A stretch of 57,759 nt of DNA from Candidatus Binatia bacterium (GTDB lineage: Bacteria > Desulfobacterota > Binatia > UBA9968): positions 1 to 57,759 of the forward strand of contig JBGQBP010000001.1 of assembly GCA_041494945.1 (NCBI GenBank), read 5' to 3'. Shown here piece by piece: positions 3,221 through 54,709 of this stretch; the first letter of the stretch is position 1, and every line of letters starts with the position of its first letter. The notes below the pieces were generated by a model, which saw nothing but the letters and a program-made list of their open reading frames with translations, was not told the DNA's origin and searched no databases. A program made the position numbers and the translations under genes.

Positions 3221-4149
3221 CAGCTGTTATCGAAACCAACGGCCTCACCAAGCGCTATCGGGATCTGATCGCCGTCAACGGTCTCAGTTTCAGCGTCGAG
3301 GAAGGGGAGATTTTCGGTTTTCTCGGACCGAACGGCGCCGGCAAGACGACAACCATCCTGATGCTCCTGGGGCTGACCGAGCCCACCGCCGGCGAAGTCA
3401 GAGTTTGCGGATTCGACCCGGCGCGCCAACCCATCGAAGTAAAGAGGCGCGTCGGCTACCTGCCGGAAAATCCCGGATTTTACGACGATCTGAGCGGCCG
3501 GGAGAACCTTCTCTATATCGCCCGCCTCAATCGCATTCCGGAGACGGAGGCCAGGCAAAGAATTACGCAGATGTTGGAGCAGGTCGGCTTGGCCGGTGAC
3601 GGCGACCGCAACGTCAGGGAATACTCGCGCGGCATGAAGCAGCGGCTCGGCATCGCGGAGGTTCTGGTGAAAGAGCCGCAGGTGCTCATTCTCGACGAAC
3701 CGACGCTCGGACTCGATCCCGACGGCGCGGTTCGCATCCTCGATCTCATCACCGGGCTAAGCCGCGAGCGCGGACTCACCGTGCTGCTGTCGTCTCATAT
3801 GCTGCATCAAGTGCAGCAGATGTGCCACCGTGTGGGCATCATCGTCAAAGGAAAAATGATCGTGATGGGAGAAGTGGATAAGCTCGGCAGCGCCGCCTTC
3901 GAAGAGCGCCAGTGGAATTTTCTGCTCGAAATCGGCGGCCGCACCGACGGGATCGAGAGCGAGCTGCGCGCCCTTCCCGGCGTCGCGGCGATCGAGCCGC
4001 GGAGTCGCGGCTGGTTTGTCCGCTGCACCGAGGACATCCGGCCGCAAGTAGCGGCTTTAGTCGTTAGAAAAGGTCTTTCTCTGCTCCAGCTCCGCTCCGA
4101 GGAAACGACGCTGGAAGAAATCTACTTAAAATATTTTCGCGAGGCTTAA
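3217..4149 (+). CDS. ABC transporter ATP-binding protein (ABC-2/exporter type)
   Basis: The start at 3217 forms an ATGA overlap with the upstream stop. Walker [10 protein letters not shown], signature YSRGMKQRL, Walker [12 protein letters not shown]. Confidence 0.9.
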
Positions 4150-4151
4150 CG

Positions 4152-5075
4152 ATGACCGTAGTTTTTTGGAAAGAGCTTGGCGATCACTTCAGCAGTCGCC
4201 GCTTCATGATTCTGCTGGCTATTATCGTGCTTACGGGCGTGTGGGCGATCTACGCATCCGGTCAGTCTATTCGGCAAGACGCCGAAGGCACATCCGTCGA
4301 ATCCGTCTTTCTTCTTCTGCTTACCTCGCAGAGCGGCGGTCTCTTATCGCTTACAACCTTTCTCGGTCTGCTTGGCCCGTTGGTCGGGATCATGCTCGGA
4401 TTCGACGCCATCAGCGGCGAGTACGCGCGCGGCACGCTCTCCCGCGTGCTCTCGCAGCCGATTTATCGCGATAGCCTCATCAACGGAAAGTTTTTGGCGG
4501 GACTCGCCACGGTGGCGACTCTCTGGGCTTCGATTCTCCTCCTGGTCATCGGCTTGGGGATTGTCCTGGTCGGCTTTCCTCCTAACGCCGAAGAACTCTG
4601 GAGAATGCTCATTTTTACCATTGTAGGAATTGTTTATGTCGGATTCTGGCTCGCCTTGGCGCTGCTTTTTTCGCTGTTGTTCCAACGTACCGTAACTGCG
4701 GCGTTGGCCTCATTGGCGCTTTGGCTTTTCCTTGCTATTTTCGCGCCGCTGATTGCCCAGATCGCGGCGAATTTTATCGTGCCGGATCCATCCACGCCCG
4801 AGCAGGCGGCGCGCCAGGTCGATATCGCTGCCATGATCGGGCGCATCTCCCCCACCACACTCTACGAAGAAGCCGTGCACGTGATCCTGAACCCCCTCGC
4901 CCGCCTGTTGGGCGCGGCGCAGGCCGAACAAACTCAGGGAATACTGCTCACCCCGCTTGCTCTCGATCAAAGCCTGTTGCTCATCTTGCCTCAGTTTACG
5001 ACTCTCATCGCTCTGGTGTGTGTCTGCTTCGGCATCTGCTACATCAAATTCATGCGCGTTGAGATCCGCGCCTGA
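4152..5075 (+). CDS. ABC-2 family transporter permease
   Basis: 307 aa with about 6 hydrophobic segments. It starts 3 nt after the ATPase stop. Confidence 0.75.
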   Translation: MTVVFWKELGDHFSSRRFMILLAIIVLTGVWAIYASGQSIRQDAEGTSVESVFLLLLTSQSGGLLSLTTFLGLLGPLVGIMLGFDAISGEYARGTLSRVLSQPIYRDSLINGKFLAGLATVATLWASILLLVIGLGIVLVGFPPNAEELWRMLIFTIVGIVYVGFWLALALLFSLLFQRTVTAALASLALWLFLAIFAPLIAQIAANFIVPDPSTPEQAARQVDIAAMIGRISPTTLYEEAVHVILNPLARLLGAAQAEQTQGILLTPLALDQSLLLILPQFTTLIALVCVCFGICYIKFMRVEIRA

Positions 5076-5192: not shown

Positions 5193-6614
5193 GTGGCTTA
5201 TCGTGATTTGCGGGAATATCTCGCCGCGTTAGAGAAAAAAGGGAAACTTAGAAGAGTCAAAAGAGAAGTCGACAAAGATTGGGAGATCGCGGCGGTGTGC
5301 CGCCAACTCTTTTTTAAGATTCCTCCCGAGCGAAGGCCCGCTCTGATGTTTGAAAACGTGAAGGGGTTCAGCATGCCGGTCGTCGCTGGGGTGCTGGGGG
5401 CGTCCCGGCACGTCTATGCAGTCGGCCTGGAAACCGATTCGGTCGAGGGGATCAATCGCAAATGGGATAACGCTCTGGAGAAACCGATCCCGCCGGTGGT
5501 CGTCAAGAGCGGCCCTTGCAAAGAAAACATCCTGCGCGGCGATCAGGTGGATATCCTCAAACTACCCGTACCGGTTTGGACGGTGGGAGAGGATCCGGGC
5601 CCTTTCTTTACCTCGCCGTACGTGATCACAAAAGATCCTGAAACCGGCGTGCGCAACGTCGGCACCTACCGAATGGAGGTCAAGGGGCGCAACAAAACCG
5701 GCTTTCTCATCGGCAACCGGCAAGACGCGTCCTGGCACATCAGGAAGAACGATGAGCAGAACAGGCCCACGCCCGTGGCGGTAGTCATCGGCGCAGACCC
5801 GACCATCGGCTACGTTTCGGTGTCCAAGATATCGGAAGACGTGGACGAGTTCGCCATCGCCGGGGCGCTCAGAGGCGAGCCGGTGGAGCTGGTTCCTTGC
5901 GAGACGGTTCCTCTTGAAGTGCCCGCGACTGCCGAGATCGTCCTGGAGGGAGAAATCCCCGCGAACGTGCGCGAACAGGAGGGGCCCTTCGGAGAATATA
6001 CCGGCTACATGGGTCCTCCCGGCAAGCAGCCCATCTTTAACATCAAGTGCATGACGTTCCGAAATAATCCGATCTACCAAGCCTTCATCAGCCAGAAACC
6101 GCCGTCGGAGTCGAGCTGCATCCGCGGGGTGGGGCGGGAGTGGCCCTTGTTCAAGCATCTCAAGTACACCCTCCGGCTGCCCATTAAAGATATACGGCTC
6201 AAAGAAGCCGGTGGCAGCGGCGCTTACGTCGTGGTCTCGATGAAAAAACAGTTCGACAGCCAGGTCAAACAGGTGATGTACGCGATCTGGTCCCTGAGAA
6301 CAGGTTTTGGCAAGATCACCGTCGTGGTTGATGACGACATCAACGTATGGGACGACTTCGATGTGGATTGGGCGCTAAGCTGGAGAGTCCGGCCGGACAA
6401 AGACGTTTACATCGAGAAGGATGTGCAGGCAGTGGGGCTGGATCCCTCTCAGGCCCCGCCTTCCGTGCCGCAGCACCACCCGACCCGTGACGTGGGCTCA
6501 CGCGTTGCCATCGACGCGACCAGAAAACACGATTACCCGGCGATTTCGCTTCCGCCTAAAGAGCACCTCGATCGGGTTGCAGCGAAGTGGGAGGAGTACG
6601 GGATCGGCGACTAG
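5193..6614 (+). CDS. UbiD family (prenyl-FMN dependent) decarboxylase
   Basis: 473 aa. N-terminus YRDLREYLAALEKKGKLRRVKREVDKDWEIAAV and central GPFGEYTGYM are typical UbiD features. GTG start with GAGGAGG upstream. Confidence 0.85.
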   Translation: MAYRDLREYLAALEKKGKLRRVKREVDKDWEIAAVCRQLFFKIPPERRPALMFENVKGFSMPVVAGVLGASRHVYAVGLETDSVEGINRKWDNALEKPIPPVVVKSGPCKENILRGDQVDILKLPVPVWTVGEDPGPFFTSPYVITKDPETGVRNVGTYRMEVKGRNKTGFLIGNRQDASWHIRKNDEQNRPTPVAVVIGADPTIGYVSVSKISEDVDEFAIAGALRGEPVELVPCETVPLEVPATAEIVLEGEIPANVREQEGPFGEYTGYMGPPGKQPIFNIKCMTFRNNPIYQAFISQKPPSESSCIRGVGREWPLFKHLKYTLRLPIKDIRLKEAGGSGAYVVVSMKKQFDSQVKQVMYAIWSLRTGFGKITVVVDDDINVWDDFDVDWALSWRVRPDKDVYIEKDVQAVGLDPSQAPPSVPQHHPTRDVGSRVAIDATRKHDYPAISLPPKEHLDRVAAKWEEYGIGD

Positions 6615-40594: not shown

Positions 40595-40905
40595 CTAAGC
40601 CCAGGTGGGCTCAAACTCTTTGTCGGTGCAGGAGAAAGTGGCGATTTCCCGGAATTGTTCTAGAGCGGCTTCGAGGTCGTTGACGATCTCCTGGGCGAGA
40701 ACGTCGGGATCGGGAAGATTGTCGGAGACTTCGAGGCTCTCGTCTCTAAGCCAGAAGATGTCGAGACTGACTTTGTCGCAGTTGATTAGCGACTCGCAAT
40801 TTAGAAGCCTCGAAAAGGTTCGCGTCTCCTTTTCTAATCCTTGAATTGATCGACGCTTCAGTGAAGCCTTGGTAAATAGGATTGTAGGAGAATTCAATCC
40901 AATTA
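40595..40905 (-). pseudogene. remnant A of a type I R-M methylase (hsdM) 3' end, interrupted by a 59-bp insert at 40811-40869
   Basis: Encodes ...LINCDKVSLDIFWLRDESLEVSDNLPDPDVLAQEIVNDLEAALEQFREIA, which matches my recollection of HsdM C-termini. No methylase body lies upstream. Positions 40685-40756 are 72/72 identical to 45145-45216. Confidence 0.65.
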
Positions 40906-41056: not shown

Positions 41057-41467
41057 TCAGTGGCCGTCTTTCTTAAACTGCAGTATCACTTCCCCGGGGA
41101 ACTCCTGCAGCAGCTTCTTAATCGCAGCCCCCAACTCCCTGTGCGTAAACGGTTTGGCGATATAACCTTGACATCCGCTTCCTAAACATTTTTCCCTGTC
41201 TCCCGGCAAGGCGTTTACGGTAGCTGCCAATATAGGGATGCCTTTAGTCTTTGGATCATTCCGTATCAGAGAGGCCGCTTGGAGTCCGTTCATTTTAGGC
41301 AGGCGGATATCCATGACAATCAGGTCAGGAAGTTCAGAGATAGCCATCTCTACGGCCTCCACGCCATTTTTCGCCACTGTGACCTCGTAACCAAGAGACT
41401 CCAGCTCCAGCTGCATCACATCAATTGTGTCTGGATTGTCCTCCACTAAAAGAATCCGTTCGTGCAT
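41057..41467 (-). CDS. stand-alone receiver (CheY-like) response regulator
   Basis: ATG at 41467. ILLVEDNPD...DLIVMDIRLPKMNG...KP; no output domain. Confidence 0.85.
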   Translation of the reverse strand: MHERILLVEDNPDTIDVMQLELESLGYEVTVAKNGVEAVEMAISELPDLIVMDIRLPKMNGLQAASLIRNDPKTKGIPILAATVNALPGDREKCLGSGCQGYIAKPFTHRELGAAIKKLLQEFPGEVILQFKKDGH

Positions 41468-41526
41468 GAACACCTCTAAATAAAATCCCACGTACAAGTT
41501 TGGAAACAAGCAGCAGTGCCCGATGG

Positions 41527-44406
41527 CTAGCCCGTTGCGCGTCTTACCTCAGTAACTCCCCGCTCAACTTCTTCAACGGTCTCCACTGGCAGGCGAACGG
41601 TGAAAGCAGACCCCTTGCCGGGTTCGCTTTCCACCTCAACTGTCCCTCCCAGTACGTCGGTAAACTTCTTAACAATATAAAGCCCCATACCCACCCCACC
41701 GTAGCGTCTTGTCTCCGAGCTATCTACTTGACGAAACCGCTCAAAGATCAACGGCAGTGCTTCTTCTGGAATGCCTACTCCCGTGTCTGCAACTTTGAAC
41801 TCTAGGACTCCTGCTCCTGAAAGATACTTGACTGTTACAGCAACATGACCCTCAGCGGTAAATTTTATGGCATTATTAATAAGATTCTGAAGGATATGTC
41901 TGAGCTTCTCCCTGTCGATTTTCACAACCGGCAAGTCGCGGGAATAGTCCCAAATGAGGCGAACCTTTTCATTCAAGGGGATCTCGGAATCCGATCTGAG
42001 ATCGTCTAGGAACTCACGGAGATTAACCTCAGAACTCTCTACCTTCACCGCCTTAGCCTCGATGCTGGTCGTCTCCAATATCTCGTTGATCATCTTCAAT
42101 AGGTTCTCCGAGCGGCTTATCACTTTGCTCAAAGCCTCCACCTGCTTCTGGTTAATCTCCCCTAACATTCCATCCTTGATCATACCCGTATAGCCCATGA
42201 TCACGTTCAGCGGTGTTCTGAGCTCGTGCGACATGACGCTTAAAAATTCATCTTTCACCTTGTTTGCCTTCTCTAGAGCATCCCTAGAGGCTTTGAGACT
42301 ATCGAAGAGATCCCGGTTCTCTAACGCTATACCCATCTGGCGCACGATGGCCATCAGATGCTCTTCTTGACTCTCGTCGAAGTGACCCACCTCACGGCTG
42401 GCCAGGTGAATAATTCCCCGAATCTCGTTGCGTACTTTCAAGGGAAGAAACGCGCAGGAGCGAAGACCCGCTTTAAGCTGGACCTTCCCTGTCAAGCGAG
42501 GGTCGGATGCGATATCGGCTGCGATGATGGGTTCGTCCGTCTCAAACACCTGAGCTACCGCGCTGCTGGCGTCCGTCATAGCCGTCGTGCCCAGGTAGAA
42601 ATCCGGAAAGCCCCGCTGAGTGGCTAGGATGAAATTCCCTGTGGAATTGTCGCGCAGACGGATCAAAGCCGCGTCGGCCCCGGTTGCCGCTCTAAGCCTT
42701 TCAATGATTCCGTCCATAATCCCATTGATGGATTCTGCTGGACCTAAGGGAGTGAGCGCCGTATAAAGACCGGAGAGTTCTTTCAACGACCTTTCGAGGC
42801 GTTGGTTCACCGCTTCTAGTTTTTCCTTAGCAGCTCTAATTTCCTCGTAGAACTGAGAATTGTAGATCGCTATAGCTGCTTGGCCTGCCAGGCTGGTGAG
42901 AAATTCGATTTCTTCGTTGGTAAATTCATGCTCCTCTTTTGTAAAGAAGCTGAGAACTCCCAGAACCTCGCCCTTAGCGGTCAAGGGAACCCTCAGCAAG
43001 GAAACCAATCCATATTTACGGACAAACTTAGAAGATAGTGACCGTGGATCTGTTTGAACATTCCGGATTACCAGAGGAACGTTGTTTTCCGGCAACATTC
43101 TGGTAATCCCACCTCTGGATCTCGCGGTCATTTCTTTCCATTCCTTTTCATCGACATTCCTACAGGCAAAGGATTCCAACTCGCCGGTTTCTCTGTTTAA
43201 CAATCTGACCGTGGTAACGGCATACGGGAGAAAACGGTCAATCTTATCAAGCAGGACATCCAAGACGGTGCGGAGATCCAGAGTTGAGGCAATGGCCACA
43301 TCGATCTCGTGCAGAGCTTTCAGCTGCTGGTGGCGCCTTTCAAGCGACTCGGCCATTGCATCAAAAGAGCGGGCCAATTGTCCGAGTTCTCCCTTATCGT
43401 AAGATCCTCCAGCGCGCGCACCGAGGTCACCTGCAGAAAGTCTTTTTGTCGCATTGACTAAAACATTGATCCGCCGAAGCACGAATATATCGCTGCCAGT
43501 CCATGCAAAAGCCAGCATGAGGACAACAACGAGTCCAAGTCCTGCAAGGTTCACGGCAACTATCCGGTCGACGTCCGCAAACGCCTGTTTTTTAGGTATA
43601 CCTGCCCAGACATATACCGTCCCGCTCTTAGGCATGCCGCGGAGCGAAGTAAACGCATAGAGACATGGGACTCCATCTAACCCAGCCGCCTCAGTTGTGC
43701 CTTCGCGTCCAGCCAAGACGGTCTTAACAATAGAGGCCTCAGGCGCACTCTTTCCGGTTAAATTCTCCGGATCGGGATCGCGAGCTAAGATCACACCCTT
43801 ACGGTCGATCACAGTGACACTCGATCCCTCGGGTAACCGCGCTTCAGCTACGATTCGATGGAACCACGACAAATTCAGCCCAATAACCAGAACCGCGCGC
43901 ACATGACCTCTTGCATCAAGAGAAGGATAGGAAAGCGTGATAATGGGCTTCTTGCTGAAGCGGCCGATTATAAACTCGCTTACTGTGAAGTCTCGCATTT
44001 TAAGGACTTGTTGAAAATATGGCCGGTCTGAAAAGTTAACAGGTTGAGCGCCGGGAGTACCGCTGCAGAATACATCGCCGTTCGGTTTCGCCGCTGCAAT
44101 CGTCGTAAATACCTTAAACTTCCCTATGAGGTCGGAGAAGAGATTGCTACAGCCGTTGCTATCGTATTTGAGAACTTGAGGAAGCTTTGCCAGAGCCACC
44201 AGGAGCTGATGCCCTGACTCAATTAGTCGTTCATGTTCGGCTGAGAGCGCTCGAATCAGTTTTAGCGAGTCCTCTTGTGCGTCGTGGGCAGCCTGCTCCC
44301 GTTGTTTTGATGCCGTGTAATGGATCAGCCCTAATGCCGGGACAACGGAAACGAGAACGAGAAGCAACAAACGGACACGAAGACTTGAAAAGGAAAATCG
44401 CGTCAT
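41527..44406 (-). CDS. sensor histidine kinase (Cache-like periplasmic domain, HAMP, multiple GAF, HisKA, HATPase_c)
   Basis: H-box SVMSHELRTPLN, N-box NLINNAIKFT, G-boxes DTGVGI and GGVGMGLYI. The HAMP region has a LSAGDL-type motif. Start taken at the ATG at 44406 (the track gives 44451). Confidence 0.9.
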   Translation of the reverse strand: MTRFSFSSLRVRLLLLVLVSVVPALGLIHYTASKQREQAAHDAQEDSLKLIRALSAEHERLIESGHQLLVALAKLPQVLKYDSNGCSNLFSDLIGKFKVFTTIAAAKPNGDVFCSGTPGAQPVNFSDRPYFQQVLKMRDFTVSEFIIGRFSKKPIITLSYPSLDARGHVRAVLVIGLNLSWFHRIVAEARLPEGSSVTVIDRKGVILARDPDPENLTGKSAPEASIVKTVLAGREGTTEAAGLDGVPCLYAFTSLRGMPKSGTVYVWAGIPKKQAFADVDRIVAVNLAGLGLVVVLMLAFAWTGSDIFVLRRINVLVNATKRLSAGDLGARAGGSYDKGELGQLARSFDAMAESLERRHQQLKALHEIDVAIASTLDLRTVLDVLLDKIDRFLPYAVTTVRLLNRETGELESFACRNVDEKEWKEMTARSRGGITRMLPENNVPLVIRNVQTDPRSLSSKFVRKYGLVSLLRVPLTAKGEVLGVLSFFTKEEHEFTNEEIEFLTSLAGQAAIAIYNSQFYEEIRAAKEKLEAVNQRLERSLKELSGLYTALTPLGPAESINGIMDGIIERLRAATGADAALIRLRDNSTGNFILATQRGFPDFYLGTTAMTDASSAVAQVFETDEPIIAADIASDPRLTGKVQLKAGLRSCAFLPLKVRNEIRGIIHLASREVGHFDESQEEHLMAIVRQMGIALENRDLFDSLKASRDALEKANKVKDEFLSVMSHELRTPLNVIMGYTGMIKDGMLGEINQKQVEALSKVISRSENLLKMINEILETTSIEAKAVKVESSEVNLREFLDDLRSDSEIPLNEKVRLIWDYSRDLPVVKIDREKLRHILQNLINNAIKFTAEGHVAVTVKYLSGAGVLEFKVADTGVGIPEEALPLIFERFRQVDSSETRRYGGVGMGLYIVKKFTDVLGGTVEVESEPGKGSAFTVRLPVETVEEVERGVTEVRRATG

Positions 44407-44416
44407 CGAACTTGCC

Positions 44417-44617
44417 TTAAGCCTTGAAAAGGAAATCCTCTTTGGCCTCAATCCATTTTTTAAATTGACTTTCTCGAATGCGCCACTGGCCTCCGACTTT
44501 TATTGCCGGCACTTTCTTCTGATGAATCATTCTAAAAACGGTTCGCTTGGAAATCTGAAGCATCCGTGCCGCTTCTTTGAGGGTTAGAAACTCAAGCTCG
44601 GAAGAAACGCTAGACAT
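44417..44617 (-). CDS. excisionase-family (HTH_17/MerR-like) small DNA-binding protein
   Basis: LTLKEAARMLQISKRTVFRMIHQKKVPAIKVGGQWRIRESQFKKWI is the canonical HTH_17 pattern. Confidence 0.75.
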   Translation of the reverse strand: MSSVSSELEFLTLKEAARMLQISKRTVFRMIHQKKVPAIKVGGQWRIRESQFKKWIEAKEDFLFKA

Positions 44618-45090
44618 AAAGACAATTCCCCGGCGATATCTAGCAGCAAACAGCATACCGGAGACGACAAAAAGCGTATAACCTGTTGTTTCTATTTAAG
44701 ATTGTGAACCAGAGCAAGAAACAGCTCGTCCCTGGGGAGTGACAAAACTTGCCAAGCGTTCACAAAAAGGGGAACTTTTGGTTACCTTGGGATATCCTTT
44801 GGTTTCTTTGACAAGACGAGGATCAATTTGACCAAAATTAAGGTCTGTATGCGTTGCGTAGAAAAATAGAAGAGTCAAAGGTCGTTGAGCGATACCTTCG
44901 TCTGTTTGAAGAAATTACCTGGTTTATGGTGCTGCCTCGCAAGCATCGTGCAGAACGTGAAACCAAAACGCTAAGTCTCCCGGAACACGATGCCAACCAG
45001 GAATGAATGAAAACGGCTAACCAACGTAGGAAAGGTTTATCGCCGTCTAAGATCGGATTGAACGACGCTTCAGTGCAATCAACTCGGTAT

Positions 45091-45308
45091 CTAGATCCGC
45101 GAGGATTGGTGGAATTGTTCCAGAGCGGCTTCGAGGTCTTCGAAGATCTCCTGGGCGAGAACGTCGGGATCGGGAAGATTGTCGGAGACTTCGAGGCTCT
45201 CGTCTCTAAGCCAGAAAATATCGAGGCTGGCCTTGTCGCGGTTGATGAGCGATTTGTAATTTAGAAGCCTTGGGGAAATAGGATTGTAGGAGAATTCAAT
45301 TCAATCCT
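45091..45308 (-). pseudogene. remnant B of the hsdM 3' end
   Basis: Encodes RLLNYKSLINRDKASLDIFWLRDESLEVSDNLPDPDVLAQEIFEDLEAALEQFHQSSRI-stop. An in-frame TGA lies just upstream and there is no gene body. Confidence 0.65.
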
Positions 45309-46332: not shown

Positions 46333-46427
46333 AAAGGTTCGCGTCTCCTTTTCTACTCCCTGAATTGATTCGACGCTTCAGTGAAGCCTTGGAAAATAGG
46401 ATTGTAGGAGAATTCAGTTCAATCCTG
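46333..46427. repeat. copy C of the cassette-junction module, about 90% identical to 40814-40905
   Basis: aaaggttcgcgtctccttttcta..tgaattgat.cgacgcttcagtgaagccttgg.aaataggattgtaggagaattca... is shared with copy A. Confidence 0.85.
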
Positions 46428-46796: not shown

Positions 46797-47072
46797 TTAA
46801 CGATAAACTTCCTCATGGCTCCCAATATCGAGCAGAATAATTTGCTTCTTTGGTGTCCTAAGCATCAGGGTGACACGGTAGGCGTGAGTCAAACTTACCG
46901 CGTGCAGACCTTCCAAAGATCCCTTGAGTGCATGCAACCGCAGGTGAGGTTGGAAAGGATCCGCTTCAAGGTCACGAAAGATTTTCCCTAGCTGTTTATT
47001 AAGTTCGGGGTGGGCACGACTAAATTTGGCTACGCTGCGGTCAAAGTGATGGGTCGTGACCAGCGCGTACAT
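46797..47072 (-). CDS. RelE/ParE-superfamily type II toxin
   Basis: 91 aa. ...LKGSLEGLHAVSLTHAYRVTLML....IILLDIGSHEEVYR is a RelE/YafQ-like C-terminus. ATGA overlap with the upstream antitoxin. Confidence 0.75.
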   Translation of the reverse strand: MYALVTTHHFDRSVAKFSRAHPELNKQLGKIFRDLEADPFQPHLRLHALKGSLEGLHAVSLTHAYRVTLMLRTPKKQIILLDIGSHEEVYR

Positions 47073-47335
47073 CAGTCTTCCAGACCGAGCTCCTCAATCA
47101 GCCTCTTGGCAGTGACGCGACGCACTCGTTTGGCCTTGACATCCTGGAGCGAGGCTTTGATTCTGGCTACGTAGGCTTCTTCCTGGGCTTCTACTAACTC
47201 GCGGTAATGTTCTTCATCCAAGACGACAAACGTCGGCTGGTCGTTTTTGATGATGTGAACGGGACCTTCTTTGAGCGCATCTTCGACTGCCTGTATGCCC
47301 CGCCGTTTAATCTCTCTGGCCGCTATGGTCTTCAT
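47072..47335 (-). CDS. Phd/YefM-family antitoxin
   Basis: 87 aa. N-terminal ...EGPVHIIKNDQPTFVVLDEEHYRELVE is typical of Phd/YefM. Confidence 0.75.
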   Translation of the reverse strand: MKTIAAREIKRRGIQAVEDALKEGPVHIIKNDQPTFVVLDEEHYRELVEAQEEAYVARIKASLQDVKAKRVRRVTAKRLIEELGLED

Positions 47336-47848: not shown

Positions 47849-48093
47849 TCAACTCTTTTCGGGCTCTAGGCTTTCTTTTCCTAAGTCATTCGCGATTTCA
47901 CGGAATTGTTCGAGGGCGGCTTCGAGGTCTTCGACCCCTCGACGCGTTCTACGGGCCGCCCGTAGGTCCTGGCTCGGGGTCGTCCTGAGCGAGGCTGAGC
48001 GAGTCGAAGGACGACGATTTCCTGGAAGAGAACGTTGGGATCGGGAAGATTGTCGGAGTCTTCCAGGCTCTCGTCTCTGAGCCAGGAAGATAG
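47849..48093 (-). pseudogene. remnant D of the hsdM 3' end; retains the apparent natural stop but is frame-disrupted and carries an 81-bp insertion
   Basis: One frame encodes WLRDESLEDSDNLPDPNVLFQEIV. After the insertion, another frame encodes EDLEAALEQFREIANDLGKESLEPEKS-stop. It abuts the stop codon of the helicase gene. Confidence 0.65.
47935..48015. mobile_element. MITE-like insertion of about 81 bp with two internal hairpins
   Basis: Absent from remnants A and B at the equivalent position (gtcttcga|agatctcc). Contains CTACGGG-CCG-CCCGTAG and GTCGTCCT-N21-AGGACGAC. Confidence 0.5.
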
Positions 48094-48095
48094 CG

Positions 48096-51000
48096 TTAGT
48101 TCTCACCAAAGCCTTCCCTCCCCGCTTTTTCGAAAATGCGTCTTACCTTACGGGCATTTGATGGAGACGGCTCTTTCTTTTTTTCCAGATCGTGCGCAGC
48201 CCAATAGAGAATCTTGCGGTCGGCTTCTTGCAGCTTGCCGTTTTTTGATGCCCACGTGCGCAATCGGCGAAAAGTGCCAGGTCCTTTCTTGATCATCCAC
48301 TCTACGTCATCATCGGTCGGCGGAGGGGAAGAGGGGTTGTCGTGTGGGCGAGTAAAGCCATCATGTGCAAATGAACTAGCGTGTGGCTTCAACGTCTCAC
48401 CGTCAGCCTTTGGCTTTGGCCTGCTGTCATTATTCTCCGTAAAATTGTTTGCGCTTTCGCGAGGATTTTCATCCGGACTGGGAGATTCTTCCGGTTGCCA
48501 TTGTCTCCGTAGTTCCTCTGCCCGTCGGATGATACGCTCCCTGAGTTCGTTGCTTCCTGTCTCAGGACTTTCTTCAGCGGAAATTTTGTTTTCTGGCAGG
48601 ATTCCAAGAGCCTCTAACCTATGGAACACCGGCTCCAACGCTCGGTCCTCGTCGCGGAAGAAAAGGCTGCCGCGAATCCGCTCAAACGTCCAACCAAGTC
48701 TTATGAGAATTGCTTCCCGTTCAAGATCCTCTTGGAGTCTTTCGGGGCCGTGGAACTGCTCCCCGTCGCATTCGATCGCCAACCGTCGTCCATTTCCGAC
48801 GACAACCAAGTCGATGTAGTACGCGCCTGCTTGATGTTGGGGAATGACATTGTAGCCGCGTTCCATTAGACGGCGTAGAACGGCCCCTTCAAACACCTTG
48901 GAACGCGGATCGACCTTCGCGAGACGCTCCAGTAACTCGCGCTCCCATGCTTCCGGGTCGAGAGAATGCTCGATAAGTCGGCGGCGATAATCTCCAGCTT
49001 GCAGGTCAGTTTCGTGATTGAGGCTGTGAACGACCCACATCTGGTTTCGTGCTCGGCTTGCAGCAACATTGAAGCGCTTTTTAAAAATCCTCTTCGACCC
49101 TTCTTGGCGCATCGGCAGCGGCGGCTGCTCAGGTGGAGAGTCTACCACTGACAAGAACATGACATCGCGTTCGTCGCCCTGGAACTGTGCCGAATCTCCA
49201 CAAAGGATTTGCCTCCGCCGATACTCGGCGGGTTCCACCCGTTGCCGCAACACACTGTCTACTTTCAAAGCCTGCTTATTCCCTACAAGTGATATCACGC
49301 CGAAAGTCGTGGGCTTGCCCTCGTCGTTCTTTGCATACTCCGGTTGCTCAATGGCGGCACAAATCAGCGACGCGATGGTTTCGGCCTCCACCTCATTCAC
49401 GTTGTCCCCACGCTCGTGTCCGGTCTGAACTCGGTAGTGAACTACGTGCGGATTAAGCGGAACTGAGGATGCCTCGCGGAGCGGTTTGATTTCGCCTTTG
49501 TAAGAGAGATCGTTGCTAAAGGCGATGATGTCGGGCGCACAGCGGAAGTGTTCGGTCAGCCGAATCACGCTGCCGAATGACGGCTCGGCCAATTCGTAAA
49601 CTGAAGTTTCGCCATCATAAGCCAAGTGGCCCGGCACACCTGATAAGTAGGTGTTGATAAGTTTCAGAACTTCGGTCTTGTCCTGAAAAACCGTTGGTGT
49701 AACTTGCTCCTTGTCGCCAACCACGACTACCTGACATCCAAGATACAGAGCAAACAATGCTGTCGGATCGCACTGGCTCGCTTCATCAATGATCACGACG
49801 TTAAAACGAGTGTTGCGTGGGTCAAAAGTCTCTGCCACCTCGGCAAGCGGCATGATCCACACCGGAACGGCTTGCTTCGCCAGTTCCATCTCTTTTCGCG
49901 CTGCTTGGAGGAAGTGTTGATCGAGGACACCCTTCCGGCTCTTTGTCAGCTTATCACGGTACAATGCGTAATGTCCGAGCGCACGCCGCTGTTCTGACGT
50001 GACCTGACGGATTTGGTTCATCCACGTTTGCTTTTCGACAAGGTGCGCGGTGACGTCAAGAAGTTGTTGGCAGAGAGCTTCAATGCGTTGCTGCAATTGG
50101 TCGAGCGACACGCTCGCCCGTTTTTCTAACTCATCATGAAGCTGCCGCCATTCCCAAGCGGAGTAGGGGTCGCCCGGTGGCTGCGGCTTACTATGTTGTA
50201 CCAGTCGATTCTCAATCGCCGACGCCCAAGCGGGTGCCGAGCAAGCGAGACGAGCCAAAAATTCGCGCCGGTTTACCAAGTCCAATTCCAAGTTCTTTAA
50301 TCGTAAAAGTTCTTCGTATGCCGATTGATAGTCTAGGGGCGACGCATCGAGCATGGCTTGGCGCAACCGCTGGGTCGCTTGTGCTTCGGACTGACCTAAC
50401 TCTGGTACCGTCTCATACCATGCACGCAATTTTGCCAGAAGTCGCTTATGACGAAGCCAACCGGTCCGCGATTGAAGAATCGGGCCGAGGTCGCCGAGAA
50501 CCGCACGACGGATCCGGCGAAGCTCCGCGTTCTCTCCCGCCTCTGGTGCAGTTGAGTCTAGGAATACAGACCATTGAAAGCCGAGGCGCTGAAACTCATC
50601 TTCGAGCGGTTGCCATGTAACGACGTGCCATTCCAAACAATCTTGGATTTGCGGCACATACTGTTTACAGACCTGCTCTGGCTTTTCGCCCAGTTCGGAA
50701 CACGCGAGAGCACCCTGACGAGCCATCAGTTGTTCCCAGCGTGCAACCAGCTCTAAGCGAAGCTGACTCATCCGCAGCCGTGCGCGTACTGCACGCAAGT
50801 GAGTCGAATTGTTCAACTCGAAAGACCGGTTGCCAACACGAGTTTTTTCTTTGAACGCAAACCAATGGCGTTTGCTCAGCTTCGCGACCAGACCAAATGA
50901 CTTACCGGCTTCGTGATGTTGAATGATCTCGTCAACGAGCGCCAACAGTTCATGCGGAGGGCGTGGGTCGGAAACTTCCGGGCCGTGTTGTATGACCAGA

Positions 51001-53087
51001 GCATAACACTCCCCCACCTCACGCCAAGTGGACTCAATCAATTCCGCCAGCCATTCCCAAAGACGGCGGGCCTGCTCGCCGTCTCGCCCTGCTTGAATAG
51101 CGTCCAGTTGCCAAGGGGCGCTATCGCGGAGAAAATCTATCGTCTTGCTAGCCAGCTCTAACATACGGTCAAACTCGGCTAAGTCGTTCGGTTCCCGCGT
51201 AGAGTCCCAAAGCTCCTCGCGCAGGCGAAGGTTCTGGCCAGCCAACACAGTCATTTCCTCAACGGCGCTCCGAAATTCATTCGGCGTCGGCAATGTACTC
51301 AGGTCTGGCCGACTACGTGCCAATTCGCGTTCGTCAGCAAGAGCGACGCGAGCGTTGGTTTGGTAAAGCGCTACCACTTCCGCGTGGGATAGAGGCAGAG
51401 ATTCGCCGAGATTCACCGGGCTGGGAATCCAGTCATCTTTGTCGGTCCCTTGCTTCACGTGCTTGGCCGCGTCAATAGGGCGAGTTGATTTTCCGCCGAA
51501 GACCACATCCCGCACTTCATCTTGTCTTGCATCGAGAAGTCGCTTACGCGCGTCACGCAGCGCTTCAAGGATACGCGTTCGCTCTCCACGTAATCGCTGT
51601 GCGTCTCGTTCGAGAAGACGGTCATCGTCGCCCAGGCGAACGTGAATCTTCTGCACCGACGCTTGAAGCTCTTCCTGACTCTGCTTGTCGTTATGAAGAA
51701 CACTGATACAAAGCGGCTGAAGTGGCTCGACGACTTTCTCCCTAAGTACGCGCAACGCTTTGGGTGTATGGGCGGTGACGAGCACGCGCTTGCCCTGCGC
51801 TAACAAATGGCCGAGAAGATTCGCAATGGTGTGCGTTTTTCCAGTGCCGGGCGGCCCTTGCACGAGGACACAATCCCTACGAGCGAGCTGTTTGGCAATT
51901 TCAAGCTGCTCGCGATTGGCAGTCTTGCTCAAGAGAACATCGTCATCCTCGTTCCCGAACGAAAGCCCGCCGGAGTGAGATTCCTCCTGAGCGACAAGCC
52001 TCTCCTCCAGCCCAAGGATTTGAAGCAGCGAAGGCGGAAAAACATCACGGCTTGCGATATCCTCCAGCACCAAATCAAAGACATTACCCCGTCCAGTTCG
52101 CCGTGCCCGCATGAAAATCACCGGCTGGCGCATCATAACCGGGCCGCTCTGCTCTTGGTTGGCTTTCTGCTGATTAAAGAAGGATAAGTCAGGCTGCGAC
52201 GATGACACCACACTTTTACTAGCGGGCGCCAGGCCACTCTCAACGACTGTGCCGCCTGTTGGGAAAAGTCCTTGGACCAGCCGTCGAAGGAAACCGTCAG
52301 TGTCCTCGGCTCCGAGGGGCGCAAATTCCGCTTTTTTCTGCTCGTCCGCACATCTGGCAAGTTGCGAATGGTTTACTCCGGGAATGGCGCGAAGAAATTC
52401 CATGTAAAGTTCCGGAAGCTGATCACGCTTTCGGAAAATAAACTGTGGCTGCCGCTTTTCCGGATAGAATTCCAATTCCAGCTTTTGTAACAGGACGGGA
52501 TGTCGGAAGTCGCCGGCCGGATCCGAACAATAGAAAAGACCATCGCCAACTAGCAGTTCAATCTTCTCGCCTTCTCGCTCTAGGACGCCATACCATTCAT
52601 AAACGGTTTCAAAGAGAGTCAGAGTTTCTCTCGCCGGGCGCTCGTTTATTACCCACTGCTCGCGTTGCTGCTGCCATGTGTGAAAAACCGACAACCGACC
52701 AGCATCTGATTCAAACTGTTCAATACGTGTATTCCCGTCTTCGCCGATAACATTGCGCGTTGACTGGACCTCTAATTTTCCAGGATGCTCCTGCCAACCT
52801 GGTTTGAGCCAAGCGAGCAAAGCTGGAGGGGGTGACGGACACTTCGTAATGGAGGGACGACTCAAATGCAGCACGATATCTTTATCGTCCGTGTCATCGC
52901 TAGATTTACCCATATCCCAATGCAGCTCCACGGAAGAATGGGAAGGTAAGTCTTTCAGCCACAAGAAGTACGGCTGTTGAGTGATATTCCGAACTGGCGG
53001 ATAGCGAAGATCTGTGTAGGCTTTAAGGAATTCAAAAAGCTTTCTCAATCGGTCGCGTGCAGGTTGCGTGTTTGGCTGGTCGCTCAT
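48096..53087 (-). CDS. 1663-aa SF1 (Upf1/DNA2-like, AAA_11/AAA_12) helicase fused to a Vsr/DUF559-type endonuclease domain; candidate defence protein
   Basis: Walker A LVQGPPGTGKTHT (nt 51834-51857), motif II VVIIDEASQ (nt 49773-49787), TEHFRCAPDI, FQGDERDVMFLSVV, RFNVAASRARNQMWVV, and nuclease core YYIDLVVVGNGRRLAIECDGEQFH. Confidence 0.85.
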   Translation of the reverse strand: MSDQPNTQPARDRLRKLFEFLKAYTDLRYPPVRNITQQPYFLWLKDLPSHSSVELHWDMGKSSDDTDDKDIVLHLSRPSITKCPSPPPALLAWLKPGWQEHPGKLEVQSTRNVIGEDGNTRIEQFESDAGRLSVFHTWQQQREQWVINERPARETLTLFETVYEWYGVLEREGEKIELLVGDGLFYCSDPAGDFRHPVLLQKLELEFYPEKRQPQFIFRKRDQLPELYMEFLRAIPGVNHSQLARCADEQKKAEFAPLGAEDTDGFLRRLVQGLFPTGGTVVESGLAPASKSVVSSSQPDLSFFNQQKANQEQSGPVMMRQPVIFMRARRTGRGNVFDLVLEDIASRDVFPPSLLQILGLEERLVAQEESHSGGLSFGNEDDDVLLSKTANREQLEIAKQLARRDCVLVQGPPGTGKTHTIANLLGHLLAQGKRVLVTAHTPKALRVLREKVVEPLQPLCISVLHNDKQSQEELQASVQKIHVRLGDDDRLLERDAQRLRGERTRILEALRDARKRLLDARQDEVRDVVFGGKSTRPIDAAKHVKQGTDKDDWIPSPVNLGESLPLSHAEVVALYQTNARVALADERELARSRPDLSTLPTPNEFRSAVEEMTVLAGQNLRLREELWDSTREPNDLAEFDRMLELASKTIDFLRDSAPWQLDAIQAGRDGEQARRLWEWLAELIESTWREVGECYALVIQHGPEVSDPRPPHELLALVDEIIQHHEAGKSFGLVAKLSKRHWFAFKEKTRVGNRSFELNNSTHLRAVRARLRMSQLRLELVARWEQLMARQGALACSELGEKPEQVCKQYVPQIQDCLEWHVVTWQPLEDEFQRLGFQWSVFLDSTAPEAGENAELRRIRRAVLGDLGPILQSRTGWLRHKRLLAKLRAWYETVPELGQSEAQATQRLRQAMLDASPLDYQSAYEELLRLKNLELDLVNRREFLARLACSAPAWASAIENRLVQHSKPQPPGDPYSAWEWRQLHDELEKRASVSLDQLQQRIEALCQQLLDVTAHLVEKQTWMNQIRQVTSEQRRALGHYALYRDKLTKSRKGVLDQHFLQAARKEMELAKQAVPVWIMPLAEVAETFDPRNTRFNVVIIDEASQCDPTALFALYLGCQVVVVGDKEQVTPTVFQDKTEVLKLINTYLSGVPGHLAYDGETSVYELAEPSFGSVIRLTEHFRCAPDIIAFSNDLSYKGEIKPLREASSVPLNPHVVHYRVQTGHERGDNVNEVEAETIASLICAAIEQPEYAKNDEGKPTTFGVISLVGNKQALKVDSVLRQRVEPAEYRRRQILCGDSAQFQGDERDVMFLSVVDSPPEQPPLPMRQEGSKRIFKKRFNVAASRARNQMWVVHSLNHETDLQAGDYRRRLIEHSLDPEAWERELLERLAKVDPRSKVFEGAVLRRLMERGYNVIPQHQAGAYYIDLVVVGNGRRLAIECDGEQFHGPERLQEDLEREAILIRLGWTFERIRGSLFFRDEDRALEPVFHRLEALGILPENKISAEESPETGSNELRERIIRRAEELRRQWQPEESPSPDENPRESANNFTENNDSRPKPKADGETLKPHASSFAHDGFTRPHDNPSSPPPTDDDVEWMIKKGPGTFRRLRTWASKNGKLQEADRKILYWAAHDLEKKKEPSPSNARKVRRIFEKAGREGFGEN

Positions 53088-53329
53088 ATCGCTATTGTGC
53101 TGGAAATGTAATTACCCATTCGTTTTTTAGCCTCGATCACTCCCGCCGCGCTGCCGTTCACGTAGAGAAGGTAGTCCGCGAAGCCGTGACCTGTCCTCAA
53201 CGGAAAGTTACGGATAGCCAAGCCGCAAGAAGCCGAGATATTCGCTTCATTGAGATTGCGAACCTCCCAGCCGGCGCTGGCGAACATGCGGTCGATATTT
53301 TCGCGCGCTTGGTCTTCGGGTGTCGGCAT
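53084..53329 (-). CDS. 81-aa ORF equal to the N-terminal (HSDR_N-like, PD-(D/E)xK) part of a type I restriction R subunit; truncated remnant or retained small gene
   Basis: PEDQARENIDRMFASAGWEV...FPLRTGHGFADYLLYVNGSAAGVIEAKK matches my recollection of HsdR N-termini. Similarity ends right after EAKK. The stop overlaps the helicase start (ATGA). Confidence 0.55.
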   Translation of the reverse strand: MPTPEDQARENIDRMFASAGWEVRNLNEANISASCGLAIRNFPLRTGHGFADYLLYVNGSAAGVIEAKKRMGNYISSTIAI

Positions 53330-53437
53330 ATTGGAAACGTCTCTGAAGACGTAATTCTGCCATTTTACGCGAACAGCGGGGAATCTGGCAAGCGGTTTAA
53401 ATGCAGGTGATAAGGATCGGCAAGCGCCGATTTCTAA

Positions 53438-54709
53438 TCACGCCTTCTTCGGAATCTTGAGCTGCTGGCCGATGGCGAGACGATGGGCGTTGCTCATGCC
53501 GTTAGCTTGCTGGATCGAGCCGATCGAGACTCGATAGTTGCGGGCGATCTTGGAGAGGGTTTCGCCGGGGGCGACGTGATGGAGAACCCAATTGAGTGAA
53601 GTTTTCGAAGCCGCGACGATGGTGGCCGCGGCGGGCGATGAGCCGACGATTCTTTTATACGCGGCAATGAGACTCTCGAGCTTGTCGGGCGGCGCCTTGA
53701 CGCGGTAGCCTCCGGGGAGGTCTTTGACCTTGGAGCTCACCGCCGGGTTCCATTCGAGAAATTGCGCGTGGGAAATATCGGTCGGCTTGAGCAAGGCCGT
53801 GATCGAGACGTTCCGCCCCACAGTCAGCTCTTCGAGCGTCAACGGAGAGTGATACTCCAGGGTCGGAAAAAATTCTCCGCTTCTCCGCGCCACGTCCACC
53901 GCGGCTAAAAACTCCGTGTAGAAGCTCTTGGAAGCAAACCCAAACGACGGGCCCTGGTAGCGCTGAATGATATCGACCAGGTTGCTGGAGCCCACGTCGG
54001 AGACGGCCCGCAGCATCCCTTCCCGGCCATGATTATAAGCGGTGAGCGCCAACGGCCAGTTGCCCAGAGCCTCGTAGTTTTGCTTCAAGAACCGCGCGGC
54101 GGCGCGGGTCGATTCGATCGGATCTCTCCGCTCGTCCAAGGTGGGACCGACGCGCATGAATTTCTTTCCCGTGGAAGGCATGAACTGCCACATCCCTAAA
54201 GCGCCCACACTGGAGCGGGCGTTGAGATTGAAAGAGGATTCCACGAGAGGCAAATACGCGATTTGTTCCGGCACCCCTTCTTCGCGCATGATTTTCTGCA
54301 TCTGATCGAGATAGCGCCGCGAGAGCGCGAGCCCGGCAGCATAGCGTTCTTTGACGCCTCGCTGCGCCCTTACCCGCTCTTCGGCCACCGCAAACCCTTC
54401 CGCCTGGCCGATCGCGTCGATCTCCTGCTTGATGAGCTTGCGCGCGTTGCTGTTGTCGTCGATATTGACGACTTTGTAGATTTTCAGCGGATCTTGCCGG
54501 TCGTGAAAGATGACCTCCCCGGTGCCGTAACGCGTGAATACGAGCCGCCAAAATTCCACCGCGTTCTCCAATCCGGGGAGCACGGGGAAAGCATCCTCTT
54601 GCGCCGACAACGCGCCGGGCCGCCCAAGGCAGACCGAGAGCGCCAGAGCCGAGAACAGGCAGACGAGCAGTTTTGCGGATCGGTGGTTAGCCATATAAAA
54701 TTGACGCAT
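53438..54709 (-). CDS. MltD-like lytic transglycosylase with a C-terminal LysM domain; start 54709 or 54694
   Basis: SLT core VESSFNLNARSSVGALGMWQFMPSTG...AYNHG. LysM HHVAPGETLSKIARNYRVSIGSIQQANGM...LAIGQQLKIP. Confidence 0.85.
   Translation of the reverse strand: MRQFYMANHRSAKLLVCLFSALALSVCLGRPGALSAQEDAFPVLPGLENAVEFWRLVFTRYGTGEVIFHDRQDPLKIYKVVNIDDNSNARKLIKQEIDAIGQAEGFAVAEERVRAQRGVKERYAAGLALSRRYLDQMQKIMREEGVPEQIAYLPLVESSFNLNARSSVGALGMWQFMPSTGKKFMRVGPTLDERRDPIESTRAAARFLKQNYEALGNWPLALTAYNHGREGMLRAVSDVGSSNLVDIIQRYQGPSFGFASKSFYTEFLAAVDVARRSGEFFPTLEYHSPLTLEELTVGRNVSITALLKPTDISHAQFLEWNPAVSSKVKDLPGGYRVKAPPDKLESLIAAYKRIVGSSPAAATIVAASKTSLNWVLHHVAPGETLSKIARNYRVSIGSIQQANGMSNAHRLAIGQQLKIPKKA

Follow-up and report, generated by a model that had tools for sequence, protein, structure and literature searches.

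A helicase–nuclease polypeptide

The 57,759-nucleotide (nt) stretch of DNA analysed here (the window; contig JBGQBP010000001.1 of a Candidatus Binatia bacterium, assembly GCA_041494945.1) carries on its minus strand a complete open reading frame (ORF) of 1,663 amino acids (aa) that joins a helicase to a nuclease. The gene starts at an ATG (53087-53085), ends at a TAA (48096-48098) and is the sole long ORF in that stretch. We consider the ORF real, and not a chance occurrence, because codon comparison with close homologues gives a ratio of nonsynonymous to synonymous substitution rates (dN/dS) of 0.14-0.16 and because the same protein, 100% identical, is encoded on three further metagenome contigs (L083-L085). 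Its parts, with their coordinates in the window, are as follows.

48096..53087, minus strand: helicase–nuclease ORF, complete, 1,663 aa, ATG start
51933..53087, minus strand: N-terminal domain, aa 1-385, family-specific (AlphaFold2 (AF2) model, HMMER search)
51687..51920, minus strand: N-terminal part of the first RecA domain (RecA1) with Walker A (K417), aa 390-467 (AAA_11, AAA_19 and AAA_30 matches)
49866..51686, minus strand: all-alpha-helical insert of ~600 aa within RecA1, aa 468-1073 (AF2 model)
48933..49865, minus strand: C-terminal part of RecA1 and RecA2 (motifs II-VI), aa 1074-1385 (AAA_12 at 1172-1353)
48615..48893, minus strand: Vsr-like (MTES_1575 / DUF559) endonuclease, aa 1399-1491, with D1426, E1439 and D1441 (PF18741, DUF559)
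48099..48497, minus strand: variable C-terminal extension, aa 1531-1663, a disordered P/S/E-rich linker and a basic tail of ~65 aa

An earlier note on this DNA, made from the letters alone, had described superfamily 1 (SF1) helicase motifs, an endonuclease-like core, a P/S/E-rich linker and a basic tail in this ORF, and every one of these is present. The motifs are GPPGTGKT (aa 411-418), DEASQ (1101-1105), VGDKEQ (1123-1128), TEHFRC (1178-1183), FQGDERD (1302-1308) and NVAASRAR (1340-1347), and the nuclease core YYIDLVV...AIECDGEQFH (aa 1423-1446) is followed by the linker and the tail. In Pfam, AAA_11 (two stretches, 80 bits) and AAA_12 (aa 1172-1353, 48 bits) exceed their gathering scores, and the core is a Vsr-like MTES_1575 domain (REase_MTES_1575, PF18741, at aa 1399-1491; 92.3 bits against a cut-off of 38.2, 2e-26) with a weaker DUF559 match. 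A sequence search of the PDB returned Upf1/Nam7, Sen1 and DNA2 (4e-9 to 2e-6), IGHMBP2 (6e-4) and senataxin-like proteins. The AF2 model of aa 385-1560 (predicted local distance difference test, pLDDT, 72.8) has two RecA domains, the first of them split by the insert. Consistent with the profiles, Foldseek matched the motor to Dna2, senataxin, IGHMBP2 and UPF1 (E 3e-4 to 5e-3) and the C-terminal domain to the catalytic domain of the Vsr-like homing endonuclease I-Bth0305I (probability 0.98, template modelling (TM) score TMt 0.65). By motifs, profiles and similarity in both sequence and fold, the motor belongs with the Upf1-like SF1B helicases (AAA_11/AAA_12); by its score above the gathering threshold and its retained acidic residues, the nuclease belongs with the Vsr-like MTES_1575 / DUF559 endonucleases. 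A predicted ATP-driven SF1B (Upf1/DNA2-like) translocase motor, intact in its motifs, and a Vsr-fold endonuclease with its acidic catalytic residues are shown by these matches to share one polypeptide.

Conservation extends well beyond the catalytic residues. Among 66 diverse members of the family (31-85% identity), aa 1-1530 aligns almost gap-free, and the sequence becomes variable beyond aa 1530. K417, D1101, E1102, Q1128 and R1345 are present in all 66 and Q1105 and E1306 in 65; of the nuclease residues, D1426 is kept in 63, E1439 in 60 and D1441 in 65. As judged from the aligned sequences, the motor, the nuclease, the 385-aa N-terminal domain and the 600-aa insert are all shown to be under purifying selection and to be co-conserved across phyla.

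The earlier note had recognised no motif in the first ~400 aa, and this holds against both Pfam at E<=10 and fold searches of the PDB and BFVD, none of which gave anything significant. Pfam had no match, even at E<=10, for aa 1-390, aa 516-1090 or the tail. With the AF2 model of the N-terminal 400 aa (pLDDT 76, predicted TM score (pTM) 0.68) as query, Foldseek found nothing below E 0.1 in the PDB and nothing below 1e-3 in BFVD, where the single marginal neighbour was another 'AAA domain protein' (E 1.2e-3, TM 0.24). An exhaustive HMMER search with aa 1-390 recovered 1,079 clusters (50% identity) at E<=1e-3 and 660 at E<=1e-10. Almost all full-length matches are 1500-1790 aa long and carry the domain at or near the N terminus, and this uniformity of length and position marks it as the signature domain of one family.

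The very large insert that the earlier note had placed inside the helicase is confirmed by the AF2 model as ~600 all-helical residues in the first RecA domain (helices H84-H689 of the aa 385-1560 model; pLDDT of the block mostly 80-92). It can be aligned without gaps among family members, and the profile of the helicase–nuclease ProA, discussed below, crosses it in one stretch; for the insert, Foldseek gave non-significant matches only.

The C-terminal extension is of a different character. Pfam had no match beyond chance level for aa 1500-1663, and the basic tail of the window protein is common only to one homologue (P0001, 50% identity). Tails of at least 60 aa occur in 13 of the 120 closest homologues, where a disordered linker leads into differing small domains. 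At least five unrelated C-terminal add-on modules are found in the family, including several winged helix-turn-helix (wHTH)-like classes and a UvrD-type Tudor domain in P0068; further add-on tails are carried by P0020, P0038, P0042, P0051, P0054, P0059, P0060, P0066, P0082, P0097 and P0105. These add-ons look like modular targeting or regulatory tails.

A widespread family and its known relatives

A word-indexed search with the protein returned more than 5000 matches. The 120 best of these, ~1520-1560 aa long, share 57-82% identity with it over 92% of its length. A scan of species-representative genomes found relatives encoded in at least 569 species. Phyla represented among the best 80 loci include Verrucomicrobiota, Acidobacteriota, Saccharibacteria, Firmicutes, Proteobacteria, Planctomycetota, Chloroflexota, Actinomycetota and Fusobacteria. 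The distribution is patchy but very wide, and the presence of homologues at 57-85% identity in several phyla implies horizontal transfer. Members carry only the database labels 'AAA domain-containing protein', 'DUF559 domain-containing protein' and 'very-short-patch-repair endonuclease', and the profiles of PADLOC v2 and NCBIfam r20 fail to capture the family. A few plasmid records, among them one of a 50-kb Fusobacteria plasmid, encode full-length members. Only ~6 were found among 2.9 million viral contigs, a scarcity on which we rejected a phage origin.

The closest profile matches in PADLOC and NCBIfam are all to defence proteins. In PADLOC, where none of these profiles has a curated cut-off, the best match is PDC-S37 (191 bits, 7e-57), followed by Hhe (112 bits, 3e-33) and MkoA / MkoC (104-108 bits, 1e-31/1e-30); in NCBIfam, ProA scores 192.4 bits (1e-56; cut-off 1500) and Hhe 153.5 bits (5e-45; cut-off 2000). 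The profiles cover only Walker A and the part from RecA2 through the nuclease, with the exception of ProA, which also crosses the insert. Membership of Hhe, ProA, PDC-S37, Mokosh or Nhi was rejected on profile scores and missing domains. The earlier note had raised the possibility of an undescribed variant, and this gains support: every test for membership of a known defence system left the protein outside, and the profiles matched its helicase–nuclease core only. By sequence comparison, the family is a sister of the PDC-S37-, Hhe-, ProA- and Mokosh-type families and a member of none. The layout itself, a single protein with a Upf1-like helicase and a Vsr-like nuclease, is already known from Hhe, ProA, PDC-S37 and CnuH of type III-B CoCoNuT systems.

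Hhe (NCBIfam NF042953, PADLOC PDLC02194) is reportedly the single-gene system of Gao et al. 2020. Like the window protein, it is a single large polypeptide, and in it a Vsr-like MTES_1575/DUF559 nuclease that has a catalytic glutamate lies C-terminal to an SF1 AAA_11/AAA_12 helicase. Its profiles align only to aa 979-1519 of the window protein, that of NCBIfam to aa 986-1519. Hhe has an N-terminal DUF4011 and a C-terminal DUF3320 (wHTH). In the window protein, by contrast, Pfam detects neither DUF4011 at the N terminus nor DUF3320 at the C terminus, and the N-terminal 385 aa form another, family-specific domain. As a single helicase and Vsr-nuclease gene, Hhe is active against lambda, T3, T7 and PhiV-1, and the mutation E1731A of the glutamate in its Vsr domain abolished its weak T7 defence (bioRxiv 10.1101/2022.06.16.496414). 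Hhe appears to be triggered by phage DNA-metabolism genes and is toxic once triggered (PMC11482910). The MTES_1575 nuclease type was originally defined in conflict-system proteins (PMC3710099).

The other relatives diverge in different parts. ProA (NF058533) has the same helicase–insert–nuclease layout, with aa 402-1558 aligning in one stretch to profile positions 662-1765 of 1903, but the first ~660 profile positions are without a counterpart in the window protein. The PDC-S37 profile, at 1550 positions, is near the lengths of family members, yet the window protein and six diverse relatives match mainly its RecA2 and nuclease part (profile ~850-1390 of 1550, 187-231 bits). A search of the available literature found no paper describing ProA or PDC-S37. 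In CnuH, too, a Vsr-like PD-(D/E)xK nuclease is joined directly to a Upf1-like SF1 helicase, which bears a coiled-coil/helical insertion, but its operon is conserved with the McrB-like GTPase CnuB and the McrC protein CnuC (PMC11090510), which are absent at the window and at homologous loci. MkoA and the type II protein MkoC of Mokosh share the COG1112/Upf1-like helicase core, and type II also follows the single-protein helicase and nuclease logic. The nuclease effector there is of the phospholipase D (PLD) type, whereas that of the window protein is Vsr-like, with no PLD domain in Pfam, and the MkoC profile matches the helicase only (aa 1094-1358).

Cassettes bounded by fragments of hsdR and hsdM

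The helicase–nuclease gene lies between fragments of type I restriction–modification (R-M) genes that recur as boundaries of several cassettes, and this hsd-flanked array is a more unusual feature than the helicase–nuclease itself. The features concerned are listed below.

53362..53391, minus strand: sigma-70-like promoter candidate upstream of the hsdR' leader (TTGCCA-18-TAAAAT, 10/12 matches, consensus match only)
53084..53329, minus strand: hsdR' leader ORF, 81 aa, of which codons 1-69 (53123-53329) are the HsdR N terminus (HSDR_N 4e-6)
47879..48092, minus strand: hsdM' copy C, immediately next to the stop codon of the helicase; 3'-terminal part of a type I methylase gene, with a 77-nt insertion
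45101..45270, minus strand: hsdM' copy B, direct repeat, cassette boundary
40637..40810, minus strand: hsdM' copy A, direct repeat that closes the variable region on the side of the ccsA/hemA-C-D-B core genes

An MltD-like SLT/LysM gene (53438..54709) marks one end of the variable region and the ccsA/hemA-hemC-hemD-hemB genes (below 40575) mark the other, and no integrase gene lies between MltD and ccsA in the window. The neighbours of the helicase–nuclease gene here are the hsdR' fragment, MltD and a Phd/YafQ toxin–antitoxin pair. On contigs from other samples, the same MltD gene (at least 90% protein identity, 90-95% nucleotide identity) is followed directly by other cargo: AbiEi-AbiEii and BrnT/BrnA in L169, and an O-methyltransferase, a DUF2281-PIN toxin–antitoxin pair and VIT1 in L168. 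Of all the evidence from context, these sister strains indicate most strongly that the helicase–nuclease is accessory, exchangeable cargo in a slot of abortive-infection and toxin–antitoxin modules.

Upstream of the gene, hsdR' is truncated just after its D...EAK motif, and the window and L082 share a linker of ~35 nt between EAKK and the helicase ATG. The helicase start overlaps the leader stop TGA (53086-53084) as ATGA at 53084-53087. The earlier note had seen this overlap and had taken it as a mark of gene-precise insertion; the overlap stands, and its interpretation does not. At the same junction in L082 the leader stop is separate from the helicase ATG and lies 5 nt upstream of it; compared with that junction, the window differs by a 1-nt indel in an A-run, and this indel produced the overlap. 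The overlap as a designed feature of insertion was therefore rejected. The L147 junction looks like a longer ancestor.

Fragments of hsdR that are 62-70% identical and cut at or shortly after the same residue are present in L081, L082, L144 and L147 (two copies). They precede the helicase in L082 and L147, and a cassette of RmuC and an AAA-ATPase in L081, L144 and L147; L147 has the order hsdR'-RmuC-ATPase-PIN-hsdR'-helicase, with the second leader directly before the helicase–nuclease. In the RmuC cassettes (L081 2986-7484, L147 925-6922, L144 427-5326), leaders of 69-86 codons stand before RmuC and a large AAA_15/AAA_23 ATPase, and the leader stop overlaps the cargo start or sits a few nt away. 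The hsdR' fragments have dN/dS of 0.07-0.13 with dS of ~2, and dS of the adjacent helicase genes is 0.6-0.9. A neutrally decaying pseudogene co-inherited with the helicase was rejected on these values (dN/dS ~0.1, dS above that of the helicase); low dN/dS with high dS means that the fragments diverged mostly as functional hsdR genes, or are still constrained.

Downstream, homology to the 3' end of hsdM begins at ~48091-48092, 4-5 nt past the helicase TAA, in agreement with the few nucleotides given by the earlier note. The fragment encodes ...IFWLRDESLEDSDNLPDPNVLFQEIV / EDLEAALEQFREIANDLG and matches the extreme C terminus of a 491-aa DNA methyltransferase. Copy C is split by the 77-nt insertion (47935-48011), which is not in any other copy. 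An hsdM' copy follows the helicase gene directly, at the same junction, in L003/L104 and in L127. Each copy in the window lies at the 3' side of a cargo block; elsewhere, L168 has three to four copies between cassettes (2361-2456, 3654-3841, 5793-5955), L169 one (5400-5552) and L003 two (3410-3548, 4435-4539). The repeats comprise the last 45-60 hsdM codons and are 80-95% identical, with a common 3' limit (the hsdM stop region) and varying 5' limits. We also considered them as attC sites of an integron or of a cluster of attC sites lacking an integrase (CALIN) and rejected this, as eight repeat strands fold no better than shuffles (z -1.1 to +2.0) and there is no integrase. The hsdR and hsdM fragments that the earlier note had placed on either side of the helicase are real. 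Its further claim of a replacement almost exactly one gene long fails, because hsdM' is repeated (three copies) and hsdR' also stands before the RmuC-ATPase cargo.

Several smaller observations concern the same array. The Phd/YafQ pair (46797-47335, minus strand) is the cassette after hsdM' copy C and consists of a Phd/YefM-type antitoxin (47072..47335) and a YafQ/ParE-like toxin (46797..47072) with a one-base overlap; its Pfam scores are just under the gathering score. Three genes lie between copies B and A (41057-44656, minus strand); they encode a 79-aa HTH_17 (AlpA/excisionase-like) protein, a Cache-HAMP-GAF-GAF histidine kinase of 974 aa and a protein with a lone receiver domain, and the block is unusual cargo for a defence-type slot. 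A second repeat family of ~90 nt (40814-40903, 46333-46423, 45252-45305; two copies 94-95% identical), with the small palindrome GGATTGAATTCTCCTACAATCC, adjoins hsdM' copy A and hsdM' copy B on their 5' side and has one further, isolated occurrence at 46.3 kb. In L169, positions 3164-3303 hold a 140-nt copy (88% identical) of the MltD 3' end and the sequence downstream (window 53430-53569) inside the cassette region, which suggests a second repeated boundary at the hotspot's other edge.

The fragments could be taken to tie the gene to type I R-M, as a PrrC-like guardian or as a replacement motor–nuclease working with Hsd subunits. They flank the gene in the window and in the most closely related loci, and prrC in the EcoprrI locus is a precedent for a defence gene housed within a type I hsd operon (PMC12707154). 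However, neither hsdR nor hsdM is intact in the island: what is left of hsdR is its first 69 codons, and of hsdM its last ~45-60 codons, in three copies (the hsdS region was not specifically searched). Only ~10% of close-homologue loci, with the proteins most similar to that of the window, have either fragment, no distant locus examined has one, and the same hsdR' leader precedes the unrelated RmuC-ATPase cargo. Unlike the EcoprrI locus, the window has hsd genes that are mere fragments and recur as repeated boundaries of several unrelated cassettes. We regard a working partnership with Hsd subunits as very improbable.

We infer that a decayed type I R-M locus became a cassette hotspot in which hsdR' and hsdM' serve as recurrent recombination arms or boundaries, and that the helicase–nuclease is one of several interchangeable cargos. 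In such a system the conserved hsdR 5' leader would give the promoter, ~69-86 codons and a stop codon that coincides with the start codon of the cargo or falls only a few nt from it, and the conserved hsdM 3' trailer of ~140-190 bp would give the other end. Leader and trailer would act as portable homology arms, so that cargo could be looped out, transferred and re-inserted by homologous recombination. The cargo would be interchangeable among helicase–nuclease, RmuC with an ATPase, toxin–antitoxin modules and AbiE, and arrays with repeated hsdM' boundaries would accumulate at one chromosomal hotspot. This fuller picture of portable arms, in which the helicase travels in an integrase-free cassette system derived from hollowed-out type I R-M operons and would also be the first protein to be characterised from a widespread family of defence proteins (at least 1000 clusters) whose sensor domain has a new fold, is tentative and on balance unlikely.

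A candidate anti-phage effector

The neighbourhoods of homologues point to a protein that acts alone. No partner gene is conserved at 79 genome loci of mostly distant homologues, where the largest neighbour cluster occurs at five, and no partner or operon recurs among 42 close-homologue loci; both sets support the stand-alone Upf1-like SF1 helicase and Vsr-like nuclease of the earlier note. A conserved housekeeping context, such as a repair operon, was looked for and was not found. Among 150 neighbours at the 42 distinct close loci, ATPases of the AAA_21/AbiEii-type (OLD), SMC_N, AAA_15 and AAA_23 families are the commonest, followed by RmuC, PIN and DUF2813. The homologue in L081 (82% identity) lies among a ribbon-helix-helix (RHH)-PIN toxin–antitoxin pair, RmuC, an AAA_15 ATPase, NT5C, PDDEXK and RNase H proteins and several MNT/HEPN pairs, and that in L089 adjoins a PIN toxin–antitoxin pair. 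Around the distant loci, 231 nearest neighbours, each at least 150 aa long, were examined, and a handful of them have strong PADLOC matches (a type II methylase, type IV restriction enzymes, ZorD/DpdE/DrmD-like helicases, JetA, PglZ and BrxH). The survey for defence-island enrichment that the earlier note had proposed gives a mixed result: close homologues occupy small inserts with toxin–antitoxin or defence-type genes beside them, whereas among distant homologues the signal is only modest.

Taken together, these observations lead us to read the protein, with a probability of roughly 0.6, as a stand-alone, single-polypeptide helicase–nuclease that most probably acts against phages or mobile elements, and does so on the principle of Hhe. 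We favour a defence role because the nearest profiles are those of defence proteins, the catalytic residues are conserved, there is no partner, the contexts are variable, the slot is shared with AbiE and toxin–antitoxin modules, and Hhe provides a precedent. Several points weigh on the other side. Upf1-like helicases can act on RNA. The profile scores are far under the curated cut-offs (Hhe 153 against 2000 bits, ProA 192 against 1500 bits). Among the 231 neighbours, no Pfam family appears more than three times and most are metabolic or transport genes; the enrichment of defence islands around distant homologues is modest, and was judged without a background comparison. The sensing step and the roles given below to the N-terminal domain and the insert are pure conjecture.

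The metabolic neighbourhoods raise the alternative of a housekeeping or stress enzyme of genome maintenance, acting at replication–transcription conflicts, R-loops or mismatches, in which the helicase would expose strands and the Vsr-like domain would nick them, with no role in immunity. Ordinary metabolic genes do surround many of the distant homologues. Vsr is a nuclease of DNA repair, and the helicases Upf1, Sen1 and DNA2 have functions in maintenance or surveillance; moreover, a large DUF4011 gene is a core gene in Pseudomonas aeruginosa (PMC10250203). Against such a function, the loci share no synteny at all, the gene is absent at the same slot in sister strains, homologues 57-85% identical occur in several phyla and members occur on plasmids, and the C-terminal add-ons vary in a way typical of conflict systems. 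Genome maintenance is, on this evidence, quite improbable.

A further alternative is that the protein serves mobile elements themselves, as a weapon or maintenance factor in plasmid or island competition, in entry exclusion, or as an addiction-type toxin that stabilises the cassette array. It would fit the full-length members on plasmid records, such as the 50-kb Fusobacteria plasmid, those on a few viral contigs, and the position of the gene in a toxin–antitoxin-rich array. It fits less well with the absence of an integrase, relaxase or replication gene consistently near the homologues, with the ~6 full-length members in 2.9 million viral contigs and with the lack of a conserved antitoxin-like partner, and we consider it rather unlikely.

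If the protein is instead a stand-alone defence effector, its action might proceed in four steps. The N-terminal domain, the helical insert or both would prevent the enzyme from being active or from engaging host DNA. Free 5' single-stranded ends, intermediates of replication or recombination, or some other phage-associated cue would then allow the helicase to load and move 5'->3'. The Vsr-like domain would nick or cut the tracked DNA, so that the invader is destroyed or, if host DNA is hit too, the infection is aborted. The variable C-terminal tail, in the window the 65-aa basic module, could tune targeting or regulation. Transcription probably starts from the former hsdR promoter, and translation is probably coupled to the 81-codon hsdR' leader.

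Should the protein defend against phages or plasmids, it would give a name to a large family of more than 1000 clusters (50% identity) in at least 569 species, from Saccharibacteria to Firmicutes and Verrucomicrobiota. The N-terminal domain, for which the fold searches found no relative, and the helical insert of 600 aa would be candidates for a new sensing or autoinhibition module in helicase–nuclease immunity. To a specialist, an unnamed and very widespread candidate family is useful rather than startling, and the hsd-flanked array is the more surprising: its repeated hsdR'/hsdM' boundaries point to a concrete way in which defence genes could pass from genome to genome without a dedicated recombinase, and they bear on the question of how defence hotspots turn over without mobile-element genes.

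Insertion into an otherwise conserved setting is seen at one further locus. In L087 (7311-16223), a homologue of 77% identity lies with a Peptidase_M78 (ImmA/IrrE-like) gene and a DUF4411 gene between the genes for the Rieske protein and cytochrome b, interrupting a bc-complex operon that is normally contiguous.

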